This document shows, piece after piece, positions 11,343 through 27,146 of a stretch of 27,146 nt of DNA (the stretch's first letter is position 1; the number at the start of each line of letters is the position of its first letter). The DNA is from a virus (Duplodnaviria; Heunggongvirae; Uroviricota; Caudoviricetes), in the IMG/VR virus record IMGVR_UViG_3300045988_151853; one strand, given 5' to 3'. Position numbers and translations under genes: made by a program. The notes under the pieces were generated by a model that did not search any database, had not been told where the DNA came from, and worked only from the letters and a program-made list of their open reading frames with translations.

Positions 11343-13290
11343 ATTTGAGCTTAAGGCGTTGATCACCGGTGTCGACAGGCTTTCTCCCGCGCTGTCGAAA
11401 ATGCAAAAGAAAATCCGGGGATTTAAACGCCAGGCGGAAGAAGCGTCACAGGGTGGGCTGGCGCTTGGTGGCGGACTGGCAGCGGGTCTGACGCTTTCCC
11501 TGAAATCTTATGCCGATCAGGAAAACGCCGCCACCGGGCTGAAAGTCGCCATGATGGATGCGAACGGCGAGGTTGGAAAGAGCTTTCAGGACATCAATAA
11601 ACTGGCTATTGGCCTGGGTAACCAGCTACCCGGTACAACGGCTGATTTCCAGAACATGATGCAGATGCTGGTGCGTCAGGGGATCCCGGCAGAAAACATT
11701 CTTGGTGGTGTGGGTAAAGCGACAGCTTATCTTGCGGTACAACTGAAAAAAACACCGGAAGCGGCTGCTGAGTTTGCTGCAAAGATGCAGGATGCTACCG
11801 GAACGGCGTCAGAAGACATGATGGGGCTGTTCGACACTATCCAGAAGGCGTTTTATCTGGGCGTTGACGATACCAACATGTTGTCCTTCTTCACTAAAAC
11901 CAGTTCTGTTCTGAAGATGGTGAACAAGGACGGTCTTCAGGCTGCACAGAGCCTTGCCCCCATCAGCGTCATGATGGATCAGATGGGGATGAACGGGGAG
12001 TCGGCAGGTAATGCCCTGCGAAAAGTTATCCAGTCCGGATTAAGCGTTAAGAAAATCAGGGACGTCAATAAAGTCATGGCCCGCCAGAGACTCGGGGTAC
12101 AGCTCGATTTTACTGACGGCAAAGGAAGTTTTGGCGGTCTTGATAACATGTTCAGGCAACTGGCAAAGCTGCGAAAACTGACCGACGTTAAGCGAACAGG
12201 TGTACTTAAGGCAATATTTGGTGATGATGCCGAAACCCTTCAGGTGGTCAATGCACTAATCGATAAAGGAAAGGATGGCTACGATCAGATCCAGCAGAAG
12301 ATGAATAAACAGGCCAGCCTGAATAAACGTGTTCAGGCACAGCTTGGTACGCTGTCCAACCTGTGGGAGGCAATGACGGGGACCGCAACTAACGGCCTTG
12401 CGGCTATTGGCGGCGCATTTTCTGGTGACGCCAAAAATATCACGCAATGGCTGGGGGAGTTGGGGGAAAAATTCACGAAGTTTGCGGATGAAAATCCCCG
12501 GGTTATTCGCGGCGTCGTCGGGCTTGCTGCCGGTCTTGCGATTCTGAAACTGGGATTGATGGGCGTGGGCAGTGCCATCAGTATCGTCAGCAGGATCATG
12601 TCGATGACGCCGATTGGCATGATTGCGACGGCGATTGCCTTGGCTGCGGGATTAATTATCACTAACTGGGATGTTGTTGGACCTTATTTCAAGAAGCTCT
12701 GGGAAACCATTGGTCCTTATTTTGAGGCTGGCTGGGAACTTCTGAAGAAGGTTTTTGCCTGGTCGCCGCTGGGGATGGTAATCAATAACTGGGGACCGGT
12801 TGTTAAGTGGTTTCAGGATATGTGGGACAAGCTGAAGCCAATTATTGAGTGGTTTACCGACAGTTCCGGTGACACGGTCGATGCCATTAACTCGGCGCAG
12901 TGGGGCGCGGGTGCTTATGATGCTTATGGGACGGGAATACCGCCACGGGGATACACTCCTTATCCGGCGCAGTCAAACAACGCCTCCGGTGACACGGTCG
13001 ATGCCATTAACTCTGCGCAGTGGGGCGCGGGTGCTTATGATGCTTATGGGACGGGAATACCGGCGCGGGGATACACACCTTATCCGGCGGTAGATCCGGC
13101 TCAGTCAAACAACGCCTCCGATGCTACAGGCCCGAATCCCTTCATGATTAACAAAGCTTCTGCGCCAAAAGTTGACGGTGAGATCAAGGTCTCTTTTGTG
13201 AATTCGCCTCCGGGTATGCGGGTTATGGAAACGCGATCCAGCGGTTTTGATATAAATCACGATGTTGGCTATACGCATATTGGCAGATGA
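11335..13290 (+). CDS. Tail tape measure protein
   Basis: 651-aa ORF after the chaperone pair, with a coiled/helical N-terminal half, a hydrophobic segment, and a C-terminal tandem repeat. Confidence 0.9.
   Translation: MAEFELKALITGVDRLSPALSKMQKKIRGFKRQAEEASQGGLALGGGLAAGLTLSLKSYADQENAATGLKVAMMDANGEVGKSFQDINKLAIGLGNQLPGTTADFQNMMQMLVRQGIPAENILGGVGKATAYLAVQLKKTPEAAAEFAAKMQDATGTASEDMMGLFDTIQKAFYLGVDDTNMLSFFTKTSSVLKMVNKDGLQAAQSLAPISVMMDQMGMNGESAGNALRKVIQSGLSVKKIRDVNKVMARQRLGVQLDFTDGKGSFGGLDNMFRQLAKLRKLTDVKRTGVLKAIFGDDAETLQVVNALIDKGKDGYDQIQQKMNKQASLNKRVQAQLGTLSNLWEAMTGTATNGLAAIGGAFSGDAKNITQWLGELGEKFTKFADENPRVIRGVVGLAAGLAILKLGLMGVGSAISIVSRIMSMTPIGMIATAIALAAGLIITNWDVVGPYFKKLWETIGPYFEAGWELLKKVFAWSPLGMVINNWGPVVKWFQDMWDKLKPIIEWFTDSSGDTVDAINSAQWGAGAYDAYGTGIPPRGYTPYPAQSNNASGDTVDAINSAQWGAGAYDAYGTGIPARGYTPYPAVDPAQSNNASDATGPNPFMINKASAPKVDGEIKVSFVNSPPGMRVMETRSSGFDINHDVGYTHIGR
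12865..13113 (+). repeat. In-frame tandem duplication (about 120 bp, 2 copies) inside tape measure gene
   Basis: TCCGGTGACACGGTCGATGCCATTAAC... recurs at 12865 and 12985 with 4 mismatches over 120 bp. The second copy carries a short insertion (GGTAGATCCGGCT for GCG) before CAGTCAAACAACGCC. Both encode SGDTVDAINSAQWGAGAYDAYGTGIP(P/A)RGYTPYPA. Confidence 0.9.
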
Positions 13291-13306
13291 CGGAACCAGA
13301 TATAAT
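13280..13306 (+). promoter_or_regulatory. Putative sigma70 promoter for the moron gene
   Basis: TTGGCA (13280-13285), 15-nt spacer, perfect TATAAT (13301-13306), located right after the tape measure stop. The spacer is short, so confidence is low. Confidence 0.35.
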
Positions 13307-13342
13307 TTGTCTTTAAGTTTGTTATCAACTGAAGGGAAATCT

Positions 13343-13720
13343 ATGGGTCTGTTACATGCCATTATAGGTAATGCCGGTGAAATTAATGCATCAGATGCAC
13401 AACAGGAATTAGGGGCTGTTTTAGGTGAGGGAGAAAATGTCGAACTTGCCTATAAACTCATTCGTGACCAAATTATTCTGACTAACAGAAGGTTAATTTT
13501 TATTGATAAGCAGGGTGTCACAGGGAAAAAAGTAGAGTATCGTTCGATTCCTTATAAATCTGTGACAAACTTTTCTATTGAAACCGCCGGGCATCTTGAT
13601 CTTGATGCTGAAATGAAGATATGGATTTCTGGTATTGCAGAACCGATAAAAAAACAGTTCAGTAAAGGAGCAAACATTTATAAATTGCAGGCTCATCTGG
13701 CTCAAAAAATAGCAGGGTAA
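13343..13720 (+). CDS. Bacterial PH-domain-like protein (bPH/DUF1696-like), moron
   Basis: 125-aa product MGLLHAIIGNAGEINASDAQ...LGEGENVELAYKLIRDQIILTNRRLIFIDKQG...VEYRSIPYKSVTNFSIETAG... with AAGGGA RBS; visibly AT-rich relative to the flanking tail genes; followed by a strong terminator. Confidence 0.55.
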   Translation: MGLLHAIIGNAGEINASDAQQELGAVLGEGENVELAYKLIRDQIILTNRRLIFIDKQGVTGKKVEYRSIPYKSVTNFSIETAGHLDLDAEMKIWISGIAEPIKKQFSKGANIYKLQAHLAQKIAG

Positions 13721-20966: not shown

Positions 20967-21523
20967 ATGCTTATTGGCTATGTTCGCGTATCAACAAATG
21001 ACCAGAACACCGATCTACAACGTAATGCGTTGAACTGTGCAGGATGTGAGCTGATTTTTGAAGACAAGATAAGCGGTACAAAGTCCGACAGACCAGGACT
21101 GAAAAAGCTGCTCAGGACATTATCGGCAGGTGACACGCTGGTGGTCTGGAAACTGGACCGACTGGGGCGCAGTATGCGGCATCTTGTCGTGCTGGTGGAA
21201 GAGTTGCGCGAACGTGGCGTTAATTTTCGCAGCCTGACGGATGCTATTGATACCAGCACACCAATGGGGCGCTTTTTCTTTCATGTGATGGGTGCCCTGG
21301 CTGAAATGGAGCGAGAGTTTATTGTCGAACGTACTAGGGCGGCTTTGCCGCAGCACGACAAGAAGGGAGGAACGGTGGGCGAAAGCCAAAGCTGACAGTA
21401 GAACAATGGGGGCAGGCTGGCAGGTTGATTGAATCGGGAATATATCAGCAGCAAGTCGCACTGATTTATGATCTGGGTATTTCAACGGTGTATAAAAAAT
21501 TCCCTGTAGCAAGTAAACCATAG
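20967..21523 (+). pseudogene. pin: Pin/Gin/Hin-family serine DNA invertase, interrupted by an apparent -1 frameshift near 21338-21342
   Basis: Frame 3 from ATG 20967 gives MLIGYVRVSTNDQNTDLQRNAL...FIVERTRA (resolvase/invertase catalytic domain with the catalytic Ser in YVRVST), then runs into unrelated residues and stops at 21395. Frame 2 (21338-21523) encodes the expected continuation GFAAARQEGRNGGRKPKLTVEQWGQAGRLIESG...ISTVYKKFP (HTH domain). AGGAGG RBS upstream of 20967. Confidence 0.75.
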
Positions 21524-21549: not shown

Positions 21550-22245
21550 TTATGCACTATTTTTAGGTCTTGTAACCCGAGGTGGGAGTTGTTTGGTTAT
21601 ATGTTCAAGTGATTTTTTGCCCAAGATAGTTCTTTGGACAAAACTTTCTATAGCTTCTAGCATTTGTTCGAACTCACTTTTATTCGGGCTCCAACTGCGA
21701 TGTGCGGCGGCGTTTCCTGCATCAATTACTGAAGATATAACGCATGCCTCAGTGTCGCCTATGACTCCATCTTGTTTTAATTTTTCAACTTTTTCACCAA
21801 GCGGCAAACCGGGGTGAATTTGTAACAGTTCAGCAGTTCGATCAAAAATCGTCCGTAAACCGATGGACGAAAGAATGAAATGGTCAGAAGTATATGAAGA
21901 ATACATTTCATTAAATATTTGAAAGAGCTGACGATCAACTGATTCAAGCTTGGATAACCATATCGGAGCTTGAAATGTTTCAGCGGCAGGATAGGTAGTG
22001 ATCATATCTATAGGCGTTTCTACAAATTCACCATCACGATATTCGTGGGTAGTATGCTCACTGAAGTGTTCGTTGTGGTGATAGAAGACAGTATCACAGC
22101 CATTGCATTGGAGTAGGTGATGGTAATGGTACCCATAAACTGGATATTGGGAATCCTCCCAGCTAGTGGTTAGCTTCCCATGCACAGTGCAGTTACGTAA
22201 CCCACCGCATGTAGGGCAAAGAGCCTTGAGTATTTCCTTTTTCAT
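21550..22245 (-). CDS. Zinc-ribbon protein with DUF4145-like C-terminal domain (candidate accessory/defence gene)
   Basis: 231-aa minus-strand ORF. N-terminus has CPTC...C and CNGC plus His-rich stretches (Zn-ribbon-like); C-terminus ...LGEKVEKLKQDGVIGDTEACVISSVIDAGNAAAHRSWSPNKSEFEQMLEAIESFVQ resembles the GNxxAH-containing DUF4145 helical domain as I recall it. Low GC; sits where e14 carries mcrA, next to pin. Confidence 0.5.
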   Translation of the reverse strand: MKKEILKALCPTCGGLRNCTVHGKLTTSWEDSQYPVYGYHYHHLLQCNGCDTVFYHHNEHFSEHTTHEYRDGEFVETPIDMITTYPAAETFQAPIWLSKLESVDRQLFQIFNEMYSSYTSDHFILSSIGLRTIFDRTAELLQIHPGLPLGEKVEKLKQDGVIGDTEACVISSVIDAGNAAAHRSWSPNKSEFEQMLEAIESFVQRTILGKKSLEHITKQLPPRVTRPKNSA

Positions 22246-22593
22246 AAAGTCTCTGATTCTATATGTAGGTTAAGACCACTATTAGCTATACGGACCTAAT
22301 AATCAATCGTGTGCAGATACAAAAAAGCCCGTATAGCGGGATTTCATGTCACTAAGGGCCGCGGCTACTTTGCGTATCTTTTTTGTCTTCTCACCGTCTG
22401 GCCGGTATTTTGCTGAGACTGCTTATTTCCAGTTTTTACTAGTGCTGTACTGGTACTGCCCAATCATGATTGGTGGGGGACGGAGTTGAAACCGCAGCCA
22501 CGTCGTATGCAAGAACGCGCTGCGGTTGGCTGGTGAACTTTCGATAGTGCGAGTATTGAATGATTTCCAGCCGTTACAGATTTTACGTGTTTA

Positions 22594-22842
22594 TTAGTGA
22601 ACAAACCACTCGTCAGCAGATTCCCAGGTATCTTTCAGAGTCTCCTGAACAAAAGTTTTTGCAGAATCCTTATCTGCGGTGCGTGTAACAGAAAGGCCAT
22701 CATTGCTGGTGGCTTTTACTAACACCTCAACATCGTCATAACGCTTACTGATGCGTCGGGTTAATTCTTCCTTTAACGCATCCACAGCACCGGTTGGCAT
22801 TTTAGTCATTTTTTCTTTGGCTATGCAGATTTCAATACGCAT
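22594..22842 (-). CDS. dinI: DinI-family protein (SOS-regulated; DinI/Tum-like)
   Basis: 82-aa product [31 protein letters not shown]...[11 protein letters not shown] aligns well with E. coli DinI (MRIEVTIAK...AIDALAGELSRRI...ETWESADDWFV) as I recall it; strong GGAGGGA RBS; tandem LexA boxes upstream. Confidence 0.85.
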
Positions 22843-22855
22843 AAAAGTCCCTCCA

Positions 22856-22907
22856 TACTGTGTTTGTATACAGTATTATTTTTAACTGTATGGATAAACA
22901 GTGTCAA
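22856..22907 (-). promoter_or_regulatory. SOS-regulated promoter: -35 TTGACA, 17-nt spacer, -10 TAAAAA, with two LexA boxes (22858-22873 and 22886-22901)
   Basis: Minus strand reads TTGACA-CTGTttatccatACAGt-TAAAAA...taCTGTatacaaacACAGta...GGAGGGActtttATG. Both boxes fit CTGT-N8-ACAG; the downstream one matches the 20-bp consensus ends TACTGT...ACAGTA. Confidence 0.75.
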
Positions 22908-24001
22908 GAGGTCTTATTTCTGCTCCTTTGGAGCTCTTCAAAACGATTATGTAAAGATTTCGGATACAGTTCGGTATATACCTGCCATAGCACGTTTAAT
23001 GAACGATGCCCTGTAACCTGGGCGACTTCCTCAATACTAAAACCAGCCTCAAATAAGCGACTTGCCCCTTCTCTACGCAAATCATGGTATCGCAGATCCT
23101 TAATACCTAATTTGCTTCTTACTCTCTGAAATCCCGCAGTAACAGAAGTGCTGTTATATGGAAAAATGAATTCCGATTTTTGGGGCTGTCGTTGGACGAT
23201 ATCCCAGGCTTCCCCAAGCAAGGCTACTTTCATGTGGTTGCCTTCCTTTTTGCGTGGATCTTTCCTGTCTCTTACGAGTATAGATTTTTGTTCCTGGTCG
23301 AGATCTTCCCATCGTAACCGGCATACTTCTCCGATTCGCATACAGGACCATACAGAAAATTTGAGGATATCAACGAACGGAATTTTTGAGCATTTATGAG
23401 TAGATCGTTGTTGAAGGCCTGCAATGAGCATGTCCAGTTCATCAGATGCTGGTCTACGATTACGACGGTTTGATTTACCAATCAAACCAAGTTTAAGTAG
23501 ATATGGGCGAGCGCTTTTCGCCGGGTTTGATGTGTAATTAATTCCGTATACAGGTTTGGCCGCATCCAGAACACTGCCAAGATAACTAACATCGTGGCTG
23601 ACTGTTGCTGGACCTGCACCAGCGTTGTTTCTTAGCCTGCAATGTTCAATTACGTCATTTTCTGTCAGTTCAGATAGTTTGATCGCGGAGATGTCACTAT
23701 CCATAAGCAGTTCCAGCACATATCTTTTAGTACGGCCTGCTTTACCTCCGGCATTTGGGTCATTTAAATATTTGTGTAGTAAGTCACGGACTGTAAGTCC
23801 GTCAACTGCATTTGATGATGGAATGCCATATAGATCTAATTCCATCACTTTCTGTGTGCCCCATGTTTTGGCATGAGCATGTTTAGGGAATGTTTTGCTT
23901 TCCCTGTAAGTGATAACACCTTTTTCTTTGATAATCACATTACAGCGATAGCGTGGTGTGCCATCGGATTTTAGTCGTTTCTCTATGTTATAGTACGCCA
24001 T
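22904..24001 (-). CDS. int: Tyrosine-type site-specific integrase
   Basis: 365-aa minus-strand ORF with an integrase catalytic region (...SCMRIGEVCRLRWEDLD..., ...LRYHDLRREGASRL..., ...VTGHRSLNVLWQVYTELY...) carrying R, H-x-x-R and Tyr motifs; GAGG RBS. Confidence 0.9.
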   Translation of the reverse strand: MAYYNIEKRLKSDGTPRYRCNVIIKEKGVITYRESKTFPKHAHAKTWGTQKVMELDLYGIPSSNAVDGLTVRDLLHKYLNDPNAGGKAGRTKRYVLELLMDSDISAIKLSELTENDVIEHCRLRNNAGAGPATVSHDVSYLGSVLDAAKPVYGINYTSNPAKSARPYLLKLGLIGKSNRRNRRPASDELDMLIAGLQQRSTHKCSKIPFVDILKFSVWSCMRIGEVCRLRWEDLDQEQKSILVRDRKDPRKKEGNHMKVALLGEAWDIVQRQPQKSEFIFPYNSTSVTAGFQRVRSKLGIKDLRYHDLRREGASRLFEAGFSIEEVAQVTGHRSLNVLWQVYTELYPKSLHNRFEELQRSRNKTS

Positions 24002-24020
24002 TACACGACCTCGTTATTTC

Positions 24021-24255
24021 GGGTTCCCATAAAACGTGGGAACCTGTGCGGGAACCTAACGCGAGAAAAATAGCCTGAAATGTTCAAAAATGCACGATAA
24101 TCATGAAACACAAAAAATTAATCAAACCAGCGTGATGCCTGAAAAAACTGGTGTTTACTGGAATTCTCGGTTTAGCATTGCTCCTATGCTCGATAGGATG
24201 TACCGTTTTTGAAAAACAAGTAGTTATACACTTTGTGGGAGCCTATTGGGAACCT
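24021..24255. repeat. Clustered 8-bp GGGAACCT repeats upstream of int (possible Int arm-type or operator sites)
   Basis: GGGTTCCC at 24021-24028, GGGAACCT at 24038-24045 and 24050-24057, GGGAGCCT at 24238-24245, GGGAACCT at 24248-24255: two clusters about 200 bp apart in an AT-rich intergenic region. Confidence 0.4.
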
Positions 24256-24334
24256 GTTATTCTTAGAAAGCATCATTTGCTCATCACTTCAATTGACCTA
24301 GCGTAGGTGAAGACTTTAAGATTGCAGGAGGCGG

Positions 24335-24916
24335 ATGCGGTTGCATTTGCCAGAGCTTGACGATGTTGTTTGGATGAAGGGTGTATTGATGCTAAATGTA
24401 AGGTTTGATTCAGAAAAGGCTTTAGAGGCCATTCTGTACGTCGCCTCTAAAGCACCGATCCCAGATATCTATCATGTCGGAAAAATTCTTTATTATGCTG
24501 ACAGGTTTCACCTTGAAAGTTTTGGACGCCTCATAACGGGCGATCACTATAACGCTATGAAGGATGGGCCTGTAGCAAGCAACACATACGATATTATAAA
24601 AATTGCTCGTGGAGATGGACGTTACATTCCTAATGGTTGTGATGTCGATTCTGTGCGAAAAGCATTTTCTGTATCAGGTATGATGATTGTGCCGAGCCGT
24701 GAAGCTGATGAAGACTTTTTTAGTGACTCAGATTTAGAGTGTATTGATAAGTCTATCGCGATGCTTGGAAACATGTCCTTTGAAGCTATCAGAACCATGA
24801 GCCATGACGCGGCATGGGAACAGGCAGATCACAATGGTGAGATGTCTTTGGAATCGATAGTTGCACAGCTAAAAAATAGCAAATTAATACTGGATTATCT
24901 GAAGAACGGATATTGA
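24335..24916 (+). CDS. Panacea-domain (DUF4065, SocA/GepA-like) protein, candidate antitoxin
   Basis: 193-aa product with ...EAILYVASKAPIPDIYHVGKILYYADRFHLESFGRLITGDHYNAMKDGPVASNTY... and ...SFEAIRTMSHDAAWEQA..., matching the Panacea/DUF4065 pattern (KLxYYAD ... GPV ... THxxxxW) as I recall it. AGGAGG RBS; the start could instead be ATG 24374 or 24389. Confidence 0.65.
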   Translation: MRLHLPELDDVVWMKGVLMLNVRFDSEKALEAILYVASKAPIPDIYHVGKILYYADRFHLESFGRLITGDHYNAMKDGPVASNTYDIIKIARGDGRYIPNGCDVDSVRKAFSVSGMMIVPSREADEDFFSDSDLECIDKSIAMLGNMSFEAIRTMSHDAAWEQADHNGEMSLESIVAQLKNSKLILDYLKNGY

Positions 24917-24921
24917 TACTT

Positions 24922-25383
24922 ATGCTGGGTGATTGTTTCCCTCCTGATTTTAAGGCTAATTTTAGTCGTGAAAGAGGTATATCACCCGGTGATGTATTGT
25001 ATCTTCATTGTGATTTTACGACCCCACCTAAAGTAAAATATATGGTGGTTGTTTGCTGTGAACCTCTTTTAGTTCTTCTAATAAATTCAGATATAAATGA
25101 ATTTATTAAGAGAAACAATGATCTTATGGCTTGTCAGGTCGAAATTAATAGAGAGGACCATGATTTTCTTAAATGGGACTCATTTGTTAATTGCATTGAG
25201 GCTCATGCTGCTTTCGATCTTGAAATTATTAAAGAGAAAATAGCCATCCAATATGGCGACGTGCTAAAAGGTCGCATTACAGATCATTGTATGAGACAAG
25301 TTCGATGTGCAGTTGAGATATCTAAAATCATGGTTAAACGGCATAAAAAACTGATACTCGCTGCTCTTCAACATTATGAATAA
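24922..25383 (+). CDS. Hypothetical protein overlapping or abutting the Panacea-domain gene (candidate toxin/effector partner)
   Basis: 153-aa ORF from ATG 24922 (the track lists TTG 24913, overlapping the upstream stop by 4 nt); AT-rich; I recognise no family; followed by a bidirectional terminator. Confidence 0.45.
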   Translation: MLGDCFPPDFKANFSRERGISPGDVLYLHCDFTTPPKVKYMVVVCCEPLLVLLINSDINEFIKRNNDLMACQVEINREDHDFLKWDSFVNCIEAHAAFDLEIIKEKIAIQYGDVLKGRITDHCMRQVRCAVEISKIMVKRHKKLILAALQHYE

Positions 25384-25403
25384 ACCCACCTTTGGATGGG
25401 TTT
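25382..25403. terminator. Bidirectional stem-loop terminator between convergent genes
   Basis: AAACCCA (25382-25388), 8-nt loop, TGGGTTT (25397-25403), placed between the stop of the plus-strand gene (25383) and the stop of the minus-strand PrtN-like gene (25417). Confidence 0.5.
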
Positions 25404-25416
25404 ATTCATATTCTAT

Positions 25417-25689
25417 TTAAATGAGCCTTTGTTTATGGGTTCTGACCCTTTCCCACTCAGCACGCCCTTCTTCTCGCCTTTTGTCTATGTATTCCGCAAG
25501 ATCCTGAATATTGATGCAACGTTTTGCTTTTTGTGATGTGCCGATGCGATATGTTGGAACGGGCAACTTACAAGCGTTTGCTTTTGCTTCTGCCGTGGCT
25601 GGACTCATGCCAAAGTACTTTTGGCTAACTGCTGAGAGTTCAATGTTAGGGGTATTGAATTCAGCCATCAGTAAAAACAAGGTGTTCAT
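25417..25689 (-). CDS. PrtN-family / excisionase-like DNA-binding protein
   Basis: Product MNTLFLLMAEFNTPNIELSAVSQKYFGMSP...LPVPTYRIGTSQKAKRCINIQDLAEYIDKRREEG resembles the pyocin activator PrtN family (MNTVFLLMAQY...) found next to int in lambdoid prophages. ATG 25689 with GGAG 6 nt upstream is preferred over the listed GTG 25716. Confidence 0.6.
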   Translation of the reverse strand: MNTLFLLMAEFNTPNIELSAVSQKYFGMSPATAEAKANACKLPVPTYRIGTSQKAKRCINIQDLAEYIDKRREEGRAEWERVRTHKQRLI

Positions 25690-25725
25690 AATTTTCTCCA
25701 TCAAAACCGGCTGCACCCGGGAAAA

Positions 25726-26298
25726 TCATAATTCTGTGCTGGTGGCAGGAATTAATTTCTGCCAGATAGCGGAAACATATTTTGCCTGATGACGGGCATC
25801 GGCCAGGGCGTTGTGCCGTTCGCCATCGAAAGGCATGTCCATTTTGGGGGCGAATCCGATGGAACGCCCAAGCGTAACGATCGTGCGTACATCGTGGTCA
25901 TTCCAGTATGCCCACGGGCAGATTTGTCCTGCTCGCTCATAAGCTCCACGTAAAATTACGTTGTCGAAGGTGGCCCCGTTACCCCAGACTTTTAAATATT
26001 TTGTATTGTCTGCATGCTGATTAATGAAATGGCTCAGTTCAGAGAGTGCATCGCTGATCGACAAAGTATCATCAATACAGATTGCAGCTCGTGCTTCAGG
26101 GCTCTGTTTCAACCACCACAGGATGGTATCGCCGTCAGGTGTGGCCCCTTGCTCCATAGCACTTTCCAGGCTGACAACCGTATAGAATTCTTGTCCGATG
26201 TCTCCGGTTTCTGGGGTGAAGAACACCGCGCCAATGGAAACGATTGGTGCATCCTTATTTTTCCCCATCGTCTCAAGGTCGATCATTAAGTTGTTCAT
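25726..26298 (-). CDS. DEDDh-type 3'-5' exonuclease (DnaQ-like fold)
   Basis: 190-aa product with Exo I motif MIDLETMG near the N-terminus and H-x4-D (HNALADA) near the C-terminus. Confidence 0.7.
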   Translation of the reverse strand: MNNLMIDLETMGKNKDAPIVSIGAVFFTPETGDIGQEFYTVVSLESAMEQGATPDGDTILWWLKQSPEARAAICIDDTLSISDALSELSHFINQHADNTKYLKVWGNGATFDNVILRGAYERAGQICPWAYWNDHDVRTIVTLGRSIGFAPKMDMPFDGERHNALADARHQAKYVSAIWQKLIPATSTEL

Positions 26299-26609
26299 TA
26301 CTTCACCTCCTGCGTTTCTTTGCTGCTGTGAATTCGCCAGTTACCGACGCCTTCCCATTCAAACTGGCGGTTACTAATTCGCGTCCAGCCCCTGCCGAAA
26401 AGCAAATCCAGATACCAGTATTTTAAAGTTCTGATAATTGCTCTTACAGTTGGTTTGCATCCAGAAGTCTTTGATGCGCAAATAAAGCACCGAGTTATGC
26501 TCATGGCCTCTACAAAAGGCCAGATAAACCAAACCCAGATGCAAAGAGCCACGAACAACATGAGCGCAATGTTAGCCACTAAGCCAGACCAGTACAGATA
26601 ATTGCTCAC
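26298..26609 (-). CDS. Hypothetical membrane protein
   Basis: 103-aa ORF with hydrophobic N-terminal segments; translationally coupled to the exonuclease gene. Confidence 0.4.
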   Translation of the reverse strand: MSNYLYWSGLVANIALMLFVALCIWVWFIWPFVEAMSITRCFICASKTSGCKPTVRAIIRTLKYWYLDLLFGRGWTRISNRQFEWEGVGNWRIHSSKETQEVK

Positions 26610-26845
26610 TGGTTGCCTCCTTTACGGATCTGCGCTGCGATGCGCGAAAAAAAAGACTCCCGCGTATGACTGTTAAGAGCTGGCGCGAACGCTGCGTTAA
26701 GAACGGCAGCATCACAGCCGTCATCGATATAGAGCGCAATTTTTTTCTCCAGGCGCGCTTTGGCTTCCTGCAACTGCATACCCCGGCACGCACGCGGGAT
26801 ATACTCAGCAATTTGAGCGATAGATTTTTCGTTCTGTTTAAACAT
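26606..26845 (-). CDS. Hypothetical small early protein
   Basis: 79-aa ORF, overlapping start/stop with neighbours in the same minus-strand operon; preferred over the Arg-rich alternative frame 26572-26958. Confidence 0.4.
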   Translation of the reverse strand: MFKQNEKSIAQIAEYIPRACRGMQLQEAKARLEKKIALYIDDGCDAAVLNAAFAPALNSHTRESFFSRIAAQIRKGGNQ

Positions 26846-27041
26846 GCTTCACCTCGATAGGCTTGATGCTGTCGATCAGCAGTCGGCGGCGCGTATTTTC
26901 TGCAAAGTGGCGGCGTCCGGTTTCTTTGTGGTAAAACTCGTTTTTTCCGACGACCCACATCCGCTTTGTCTGGTGCAGTTTTTTTACCTGCGGACCGTCT
27001 CGGGTGATAACAATTCCTGTATGAGTTTTTATCACGCTCAT
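26838..27041 (-). CDS. Hypothetical small early protein
   Basis: 67-aa basic ORF at the head of the minus-strand gene string. Confidence 0.4.
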   Translation of the reverse strand: MSVIKTHTGIVITRDGPQVKKLHQTKRMWVVGKNEFYHKETGRRHFAENTRRRLLIDSIKPIEVKHV

Positions 27042-27146
27042 TTCTTATTCTCCGGTGCTTTTGGCATTACTGCCCAGTGAGTGATATTGACGTTTTCAAG
27101 GTCCCCGACCTGAAATGTCCACTGCCATTCTCCGGTTTCTTTTTGT

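Follow-up and report, generated by a model that had tools for sequence, protein, structure and literature searches.

What does a phage gain, or what does its host gain, from a single gene of low GC (guanine plus cytosine) content lodged between a tail-fiber invertase and an integrase? The question is raised by a stretch of DNA of 27,146 nucleotides from a tailed phage (IMG/VR record IMGVR_UViG_3300045988_151853; Caudoviricetes), referred to here in its entirety as the window, in which positions 21550 to 22245 encode a protein of 231 amino acids (aa) with a putative zinc ribbon at its N-terminus and a DUF4145 domain at its C-terminus. We propose, largely by analogy with the Escherichia coli protein RAZR (formerly PD-T7-4), that this is a prophage cargo gene (moron) whose product is a stand-alone, phage-triggered HEPN ribonuclease (RNase) protecting the lysogen by abortive infection, and we give this reading a probability of roughly 0.55. 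The protection possibly extends to other mobile elements. Membership in DUF4145 and the strict constraint on C10, C13, C47, C50, R131 and H182 speak in favor of it.

The gene and its two domains

An earlier note on this DNA, made from the letters alone, had pointed to a low-GC single gene convergent with pin and had suggested a phage-carried accessory function, possibly in defense. The gene, its two domains and the motifs on which the argument turns are located as follows.

21550-22245, minus strand: coding sequence of the zinc-ribbon and DUF4145/HEPN protein, including the stop codon (ATG start, 231 aa)
21970-22245, minus strand: putative zinc-ribbon sensor, the beta-rich N-terminal domain formed by residues 1-92; its two CxxC knuckles are C10/C13 and C47/C50
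21589-21963, minus strand: C-terminal helical HEPN (DUF4145) domain, residues 95-219
21838-21855, minus strand: helix-2 motif R131-T-I-F-D135-R136; R131 is invariant and is the candidate replacement for the canonical HEPN arginine
21697-21720, minus strand: signature A176-G-N-A-A-A-H182-R183, which closes HEPN helix 3; it contains the predicted catalytic histidine and the arginine next to it

RefSeq lists the same protein as WP_001514810.1, with the PGAP name 'DUF4145 domain-containing protein'. A chance open reading frame (ORF) is excluded by homologues down to E = 1e-156 and by an exhaustive search of 1.84 billion cluster representatives, in which 1,513 clusters (50% identity) matched at E <= 1e-3 and 546 at E <= 1e-10, nearly all of them across the whole protein. 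The composition and orientation that the earlier note had described were borne out: the gene has a GC content of 41.5%, against 55.4% for the structural (head and tail) genes, and it converges on the pin-type recombinase gene with about 26 bp from stop to stop. The neighboring dinI-int segment is likewise low in GC (42.3%).

A Pfam search, which had been called for as a check on the resemblance to DUF4145, confirmed it. PF13643 matched residues 115-199 on profile positions 4-87 of 88 with E = 8.8e-10 (39 bits, against a gathering score of 23.1), and the GNAAAH motif on which the resemblance had been based occupies residues 177-182. All 119 divergent representatives of the family also scored above the cutoff, and both they and the protein itself are true members of DUF4145. 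The description of DUF4145 as a domain of unknown function is outdated: since 2013 the domain has counted among the HEPN RNase superfamily, and zinc-ribbon fusions and links to restriction-modification (R-M) were already listed at that time (PMC3710099).

Cysteines are found at residues 10, 13, 19, 47, 50 and 168, and C10, C13, C47 and C50 are invariant or near-invariant in alignments of 111 and 119 members. The N-terminal module had been thought to be rich in both cysteine and histidine; it is beta-rich and keeps its four cysteines, and the nine histidines within residues 22-67 are present without being conserved across the family. Zinc binding by this four-cysteine module is predicted. In the alignment of 119 representatives, which has a mean column identity of 29%, C47, R131 and H182 are invariant, and C10, C13, C50, D135, K152, R183, W185 and P187 are conserved in at least 90%.

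Structure prediction, a second check that had been proposed, gave a confident model. The full-length AlphaFold2 (AF2) model, built from the 111-sequence alignment, has a mean pLDDT (predicted local distance difference test) of 92.7 and shows a C-terminal half with the HEPN fold. Seven strands lie within residues 5-85, with pLDDT > 90 in the full-length and domain-only models, and this beta domain, bearing both CxxC knuckles, is followed by helices over residues 95-219. The four-helix up-down HEPN fold is present, with Foldseek matches to HEPN structures at probabilities of 0.96-1.0. When the N-terminal domain was modeled alone, its pLDDT was 92.4.

A zinc ribbon could also mean that the protein binds DNA, as a transcription factor or a nucleoid protein. 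Zinc ribbons are capable of binding nucleic acids, and the protein has a full-length match in PHROGs to phrog_1305 (E = 5.3e-43; residues 2-225 on profile positions 11-224 of 226), which is annotated 'DNA binding protein'. That label is an untested, propagated one, however, and the C-terminal two-thirds of the protein is a HEPN fold with a conserved histidine motif, while a Pfam scan of the protein returned neither a helix-turn-helix (HTH) nor any other DNA-binding domain. We consider this explanation highly improbable.

The predicted active site and the comparison with RAZR

If the protein is an RNase, its active site should be recognizable. According to PMC3710099, the HEPN motif Rx4-6H lies where helix 3 ends, and a conserved polar residue contributed by helix 2 is its neighbor. 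In the AF2 model, H182-R183 end the helix formed by residues 164-183, and R131 and D135 lie in the helix formed by residues 123-140. Since H182-R183 thus end helix 3, where Rx4-6H is placed, the model puts H182 at the catalytic position. The complete Rx4-6H motif is absent: no arginine occurs 5-9 residues before the histidine in any of 267 relatives, and the position eight residues before it (H-8) is T, V, I or A, never R, in all of them (Ile174 in WP_001514810.1). What is retained, in relatives with only 23-29% identity from Bacteroidota, Cyanobacteria, Myxococcota and Chloroflexota and from one viral contig, is [D/E]-A-G-N-A-A-A-H-R-[G/A/S]-[W/Y/F]. HEPN families that keep the histidine without the arginine exist and are thought to use another basic residue (PMC3710099); by analogy with these, R183 and/or R131 may take the role of the missing arginine.

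The same absence allows the opposite reading, namely that RNase activity has been lost and that the domain binds RNA or protein as a regulator or scaffold, like the inactive MtlR-type HEPN domains. The canonical arginine (Rx4-6H; R146...H154 in RAZR) is lacking in every member examined, about 20% of DUF4145 members are without the motif, and non-catalytic HEPN domains have been discussed (PMC3710099). Yet H182 is invariant at the catalytic end of helix 3 and is flanked by an invariant AGNAAA...R, the invariant R131 and D135 lie in helix 2 beside the active site, HEPN families with H and without R are believed to have recruited another basic residue, and conservation of this kind across phyla is typical of an active site. 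We therefore regard a non-catalytic domain as unlikely.

The closest known parallel to a phage-triggered HEPN RNase of this design is PD-T7-4, which was recovered by functional selection from E. coli UMB1727 and labeled 'Zn finger-HEPN', with a zinc ribbon at about residues 12-59 and DUF4145 at residues 87-175 (PMC9519451). It was renamed RAZR in 2026 (RRL46918.1; PDB 9Y9C and 9Y6U) and is an abortive-infection RNase whose zinc-finger domain binds phage rings, either the portal or the Erf-like Gp77, and determines phage specificity; on these it forms a 24-mer ring and cleaves single-stranded RNA non-specifically, with R146 and H154 essential (PMC13017515). RAZR is the only characterized protein with the order zinc ribbon, then DUF4145; in the other DUF4145 defense proteins, PD-T7-3, BxaP and Ishtar1, the HEPN domain is N-terminal. 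Like RAZR (about 219 aa, against 231 aa here), our protein is the product of a single gene on E. coli accessory DNA, has a putative N-terminal Cys4 zinc ribbon followed by a C-terminal DUF4145/HEPN domain, and places its predicted catalytic histidine at the equivalent part of the Pfam profile. The two differ in the sensor, which comprises about 65 residues and a 14-residue linker in RAZR and about 90 residues with seven strands here, an excess of about 25 residues. Within DUF4145 at large, the clade belongs to the minority lacking the canonical arginine and carries an invariant signature of its own.

By analogy with RAZR, the lysogen would make the protein as an inactive oligomer. Upon infection, the zinc-ribbon domain would bind a phage-made protein or assembly, and this binding would reposition the HEPN domains to form a composite active site at the dimer interface, in which the invariant H182 would be joined by R183 and/or R131 and D135. 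Non-specific RNA cleavage would then halt translation, and the infected cell would yield no phage.

Other known proteins offer poorer comparisons. The HepT/HEPN toxins (for example PDB 5YEP, 6M6W and 7AE8) carry a canonical Rx4H and are without an N-terminal sensor domain, and the gene is not part of a HEPN-MNT pair, its neighbors being a pin pseudogene and a dinI-like gene with no MNT antitoxin gene adjacent. DS-38 (DefensePredictor, WP_001313577.1), a validated single-gene defense of E. coli, also combines HEPN with a zinc finger, but it is 366 aa long, with an N-terminal canonical HEPN domain (RKHRNRVVH) and C-terminal multi-zinc fingers; identity with DS-38 was rejected on the reversed domain order and a BLASTP E value of 4.5.

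Several results weigh against an abortive-infection RNase. RAZR R146, eight residues before H154, has no counterpart here, as judged from spacing and Pfam profile positions, and with the H-8 arginine missing, catalysis may differ or be lost. PADLOC 2.0, with which the earlier note had proposed to examine defense neighborhoods, includes a PD-T7-4 model (PDLC04109) that did not match WP_001514810.1 at E <= 1 and matched only 2 of 111 and 3 of 119 family members (best E = 0.021-0.022). Neither phmmer with the protein nor hmmsearch with two family profiles retrieved a RAZR chain from the PDB at E <= 10; the RAZR entries were confirmed in the PDB sequence copy with SECphi27 Gp77, which retrieves 9Y6U and 9Y9C at E = 1.4e-142. 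The model of the N-terminal domain found no significant Foldseek match among solved structures, and RAZR was absent from its top 50, although the presence of the RAZR coordinates in that library is unconfirmed. To these are added the DNA-binding label of phrog_1305, a scan that located no consensus sigma-70 promoter for the gene, a neighborhood survey (described below) that is a plain count without statistical enrichment, and a literature search that returned no paper mentioning the protein and no experiment on any family member.

A bridge between the two proteins was also sought. Among the retrieved loci, a search for canonical DUF4145 proteins with 'R..GN...H' found none, and the most divergent relatives supply no link to RAZR, all bearing the same non-canonical signature. 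By the tests made, the protein appears not to be a RAZR and to belong to a separate family with no detectable homology to it at the sequence level.

The cargo slot and the wider family

Whether the gene is cargo can be judged from its flanks and from its presence and absence in related prophages. The slot is delimited by the following features.

20967-21523, plus strand: Pin/Hin-type serine invertase pseudogene, left flank of the slot (Pfam Resolvase, E = 6.9e-49)
22246-22490, minus strand: upstream part of the inserted cargo module (leader and promoter region); homology to the empty slot of strain Br_178 resumes at about 22490
About 22320-22345, minus strand: short GC hairpin (CCCG...CGGG) with a run of six T, read from the sequence; the scan saw the hairpin on the opposite strand
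22594-22842, minus strand: dinI-like gene, right flank of the slot (Pfam DinI)
22904-24001, minus strand: dusA-specific tyrosine integrase, right flank of the slot (Pfam Phage_integrase)

A gap of 350 nt separates dinI from the DUF4145 gene, and an Rfam search of the window returned no known RNA within it. The hairpin, roughly 250 nt downstream of the dinI stop and some 75 nt short of the DUF4145 start, could insulate the cargo gene from read-through.

The gene is carried by 34 of 5,426 complete E. coli genomes, at no less than 99.7% identity, and every E. coli copy inspected has the same arrangement: invertible tail-fiber segment, pin, gene, dinI-like gene, integrase and dusA. Because the dinI-int module is present in 723 E. 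coli genomes and the gene in only 34, the gene is an optional passenger. A sister myovirus in strain Br_178 has an empty slot, with dinI following pin after just 143 bp. O111 and O157 strains have lambdoid dusA prophages in which nleG7, espS or DUF1076 effector genes occupy this position, and the K-12 element e14, which shares the ymfR...ymfQ-stf/tfa-pin module, has mcrA directly after pinE at its end. The reading as a variable cargo slot is well supported, because the slot is empty in Br_178, holds effectors in the lambdoid dusA prophages and corresponds to the position of mcrA in e14. The earlier note had likened the locus to mcrA in e14 and had called the gene an accessory one, and both views agree with these genomes. 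The mcrA gene, a defense gene, takes the equivalent cargo position after pin, in a related late-gene module; McrA is, however, an unrelated type IV methyl-directed HNH restriction enzyme, and its gene is co-directional with pinE rather than convergent.

One apparent plasmid location was rejected. The circular, 55.6-kb pSX12-2 of E. coli SX12 includes, besides the prophage, the chromosomal genes dusA, pspG, qor and dnaB and is probably a chromosomal fragment, either an assembly artifact or an aberrant excision product.

A slot of this kind could also hold a gene that benefits the phage in some way other than immunity, such as a prophage-stabilizing, toxin-like module, an RNase for expression or takeover, or a counter-defense factor. 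The gene is phage-borne in many lineages, it lies near attP among lysogeny genes, and cargo slots also hold non-defense genes such as type III effectors. But no antitoxin-like partner is adjacent, the neighbors being pin and dinI in E. coli and variable elsewhere; the gene is dispensable, given the empty slot in the sister prophage and its presence in 34 of 723 genomes with the int module; many homologues are chromosomal, beside R-M or defense genes and outside phages; and the sole characterized protein of the same architecture is a host-protective abortive-infection system. A phage-serving function of this type seems to us improbable.

Beyond E. coli, close homologues with 63-84% identity occur in Citrobacter, Enterobacter and Atlantibacter, and a profile search found full-length relatives with about 40% identity in Burkholderia, Pantoea, Erwinia, Pseudomonas, Sinorhizobium and others. 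Family members are present on 61 viral contigs of IMG/VR, although a tblastn search of the GenBank phage collection returned no match. About 20 P2-like prophages have a family member flanked on one side by lysC and the tail-completion genes gpR-gpS and on the other by the baseplate genes gpV-gpW-gpJ. Loci of this gpS-gpV type are found among IMG/VR contigs L109-L143 of our locus set and in four Pseudomonas genomes (L006, L007, L012 and L020). A keyword search of the main text of the Vassallo paper yielded no mention of this late-operon slot. A copy with 41% identity was found on Y. pestis KIM10+ plasmid pMT-1 (8001-8723 of locus L002), between tail-fiber genes and IS100/IS256/IS1618, and a family member occurs on 50 other Yersinia plasmid records; on the Y. 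pestis plasmids of pMT1/pFra type and on the Y. enterocolitica plasmids, which measure about 100 kb, the identity is 41-47%.

Eight longer relatives, of 403-507 aa, have an N-terminal extension consisting of an extra short CxxC-x17-20-CxxC ribbon and a helical region of about 150 aa. Pfam returned nothing significant for these extensions.

The neighborhood survey covered 148 non-redundant ORFs within two genes of chromosomal homologues. Among the defense neighbors were type I and IIG R-M, ResIII, SWI2/SNF2, PglX, PtuA, PbeA and mads; the neighbors from mobile elements included resolvases, transposases, TrwC/relaxase with type IV secretion system genes, and DUF3987. No conserved partner gene was found in the more than 60 loci surveyed. 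The association of DUF4145 with restriction and defense, which the earlier note had mentioned, is in keeping with the recurrence of homologues in prophage slots and beside restriction systems.

An alphaproteobacterial form of about 350 aa, seen at four loci, abuts or overlaps upstream genes of HsdS/HsdM-like size.

Such arrangements suggest another possibility, in which the protein is a second-line RNase similar to PrrC, kept inactive by an R-M complex until a phage knocks out restriction and thereby sets it free. This is consistent with the position of the alphaproteobacterial homologues next to genes of HsdS/HsdM size, with the type I R-M domains among the neighbors and with the known link of DUF4145 to R-M operons (PMC3710099). 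No R-M gene, however, is near the gene in the window or in any of the 34 E. coli copies, and in P2-like prophages the neighbors are tail and baseplate genes. Coupling to R-M is thus not general for the family and is inapplicable to the E. coli copy, and we judge it very unlikely as an explanation of the gene. Explanations outside those considered here are given hardly any weight.

Returning to the phage-triggered RNase, we put forward a broader proposal more tentatively: that the protein stands for a distinct family of immune sensors, each a single protein, which spans phyla and numbers some 1,500 clusters (50% identity). Its members would have a larger zinc-ribbon beta-domain than RAZR, a rewired HEPN site in which the His-Arg of helix 3 and the arginine of helix 2 stand in for Rx4-6H, and triggers other than those of RAZR. 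The family would be invisible to present-day tools for annotating defense, PADLOC among them, and would occupy several independent prophage slots, namely pin-dinI of the dusA myoviruses, gpS-gpV of the P2-like phages and Y. pestis pMT1.

The prophage of origin and the meaning of the family

The window matches dusA-integrated prophages of E. coli. Its phage belongs to the myoviruses and has head genes of HK97 type, baseplate genes of Mu/P2 type and an invertible tail-fiber segment. The following features lie past the integrase.

24002-24330: attP region, directly after the integrase
24090-24212: surrogate for the 5' end of dusA, 40 codons (...RFSIAPMLD...)

The sequence from 24087 to 27146, past the integrase, is the opposite (attL) end of the same prophage in strain HH107. 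Because of this correspondence, the window is a circular permutation of one phage genome, running from int through attP into the early genes, and two tandem elements at dusA were rejected.

In this copy, pin is defective through the deletion of a single G in the GGGCGGGC run at about 21341, a 1-nt gap relative to the intact allele. Strain HH107 likewise has it as a pseudogene, flagged 'frameshifted' by PGAP, and other strains that carry this prophage have the intact gene (185 aa, WP_021563296.1). The tail-fiber switch is presumably locked in the copy studied here.

Further genes of the window were noted in passing. Across attP, a plus-strand pair at 24335-25383 consists of a Panacea/SocA-domain protein of 193 aa (Pfam E = 6.8e-20) and an ORF of 156 aa with no family match and about 35% GC, the two genes overlapping by 4 bp. 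The pair looks like a PanA-type antitoxin with a candidate toxin, and so like a second candidate defense or addiction module; PADLOC returned no match for either protein. The early region at 25417-26298 (minus strand) encodes a homologue of PrtN-type pyocin activators (99 aa) and an Rv2179c-like 3'-5' exoribonuclease (190 aa, E = 3e-75). A bPH_1 bacterial PH-domain protein (E = 6e-48) is encoded at 13262-13720 (plus strand), between the tape-measure gene and the DNA-circularization/baseplate genes, and may be another moron within the tail operon.

The family is currently missed by the PADLOC defense models, and the finding is unsurprising to a specialist. If the cloned gene gave no phenotype, it would be one more uncharacterized prophage moron. 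The pin-to-dinI interval of dusA-integrating myoviruses and the gpS-gpV interval of P2-like phages are documented here as cargo slots that merit mining. Should the cloned gene protect against phages, a large family that is at present unannotated as defense would join the defense repertoire and would offer a natural comparison with RAZR, sharing its two-domain logic but neither its sensor domain nor its catalytic constellation. Setting the two side by side would bear on how general activation by phage-scaffold assembly is among zinc-ribbon-HEPN proteins and on whether HEPN RNases function without the canonical arginine.

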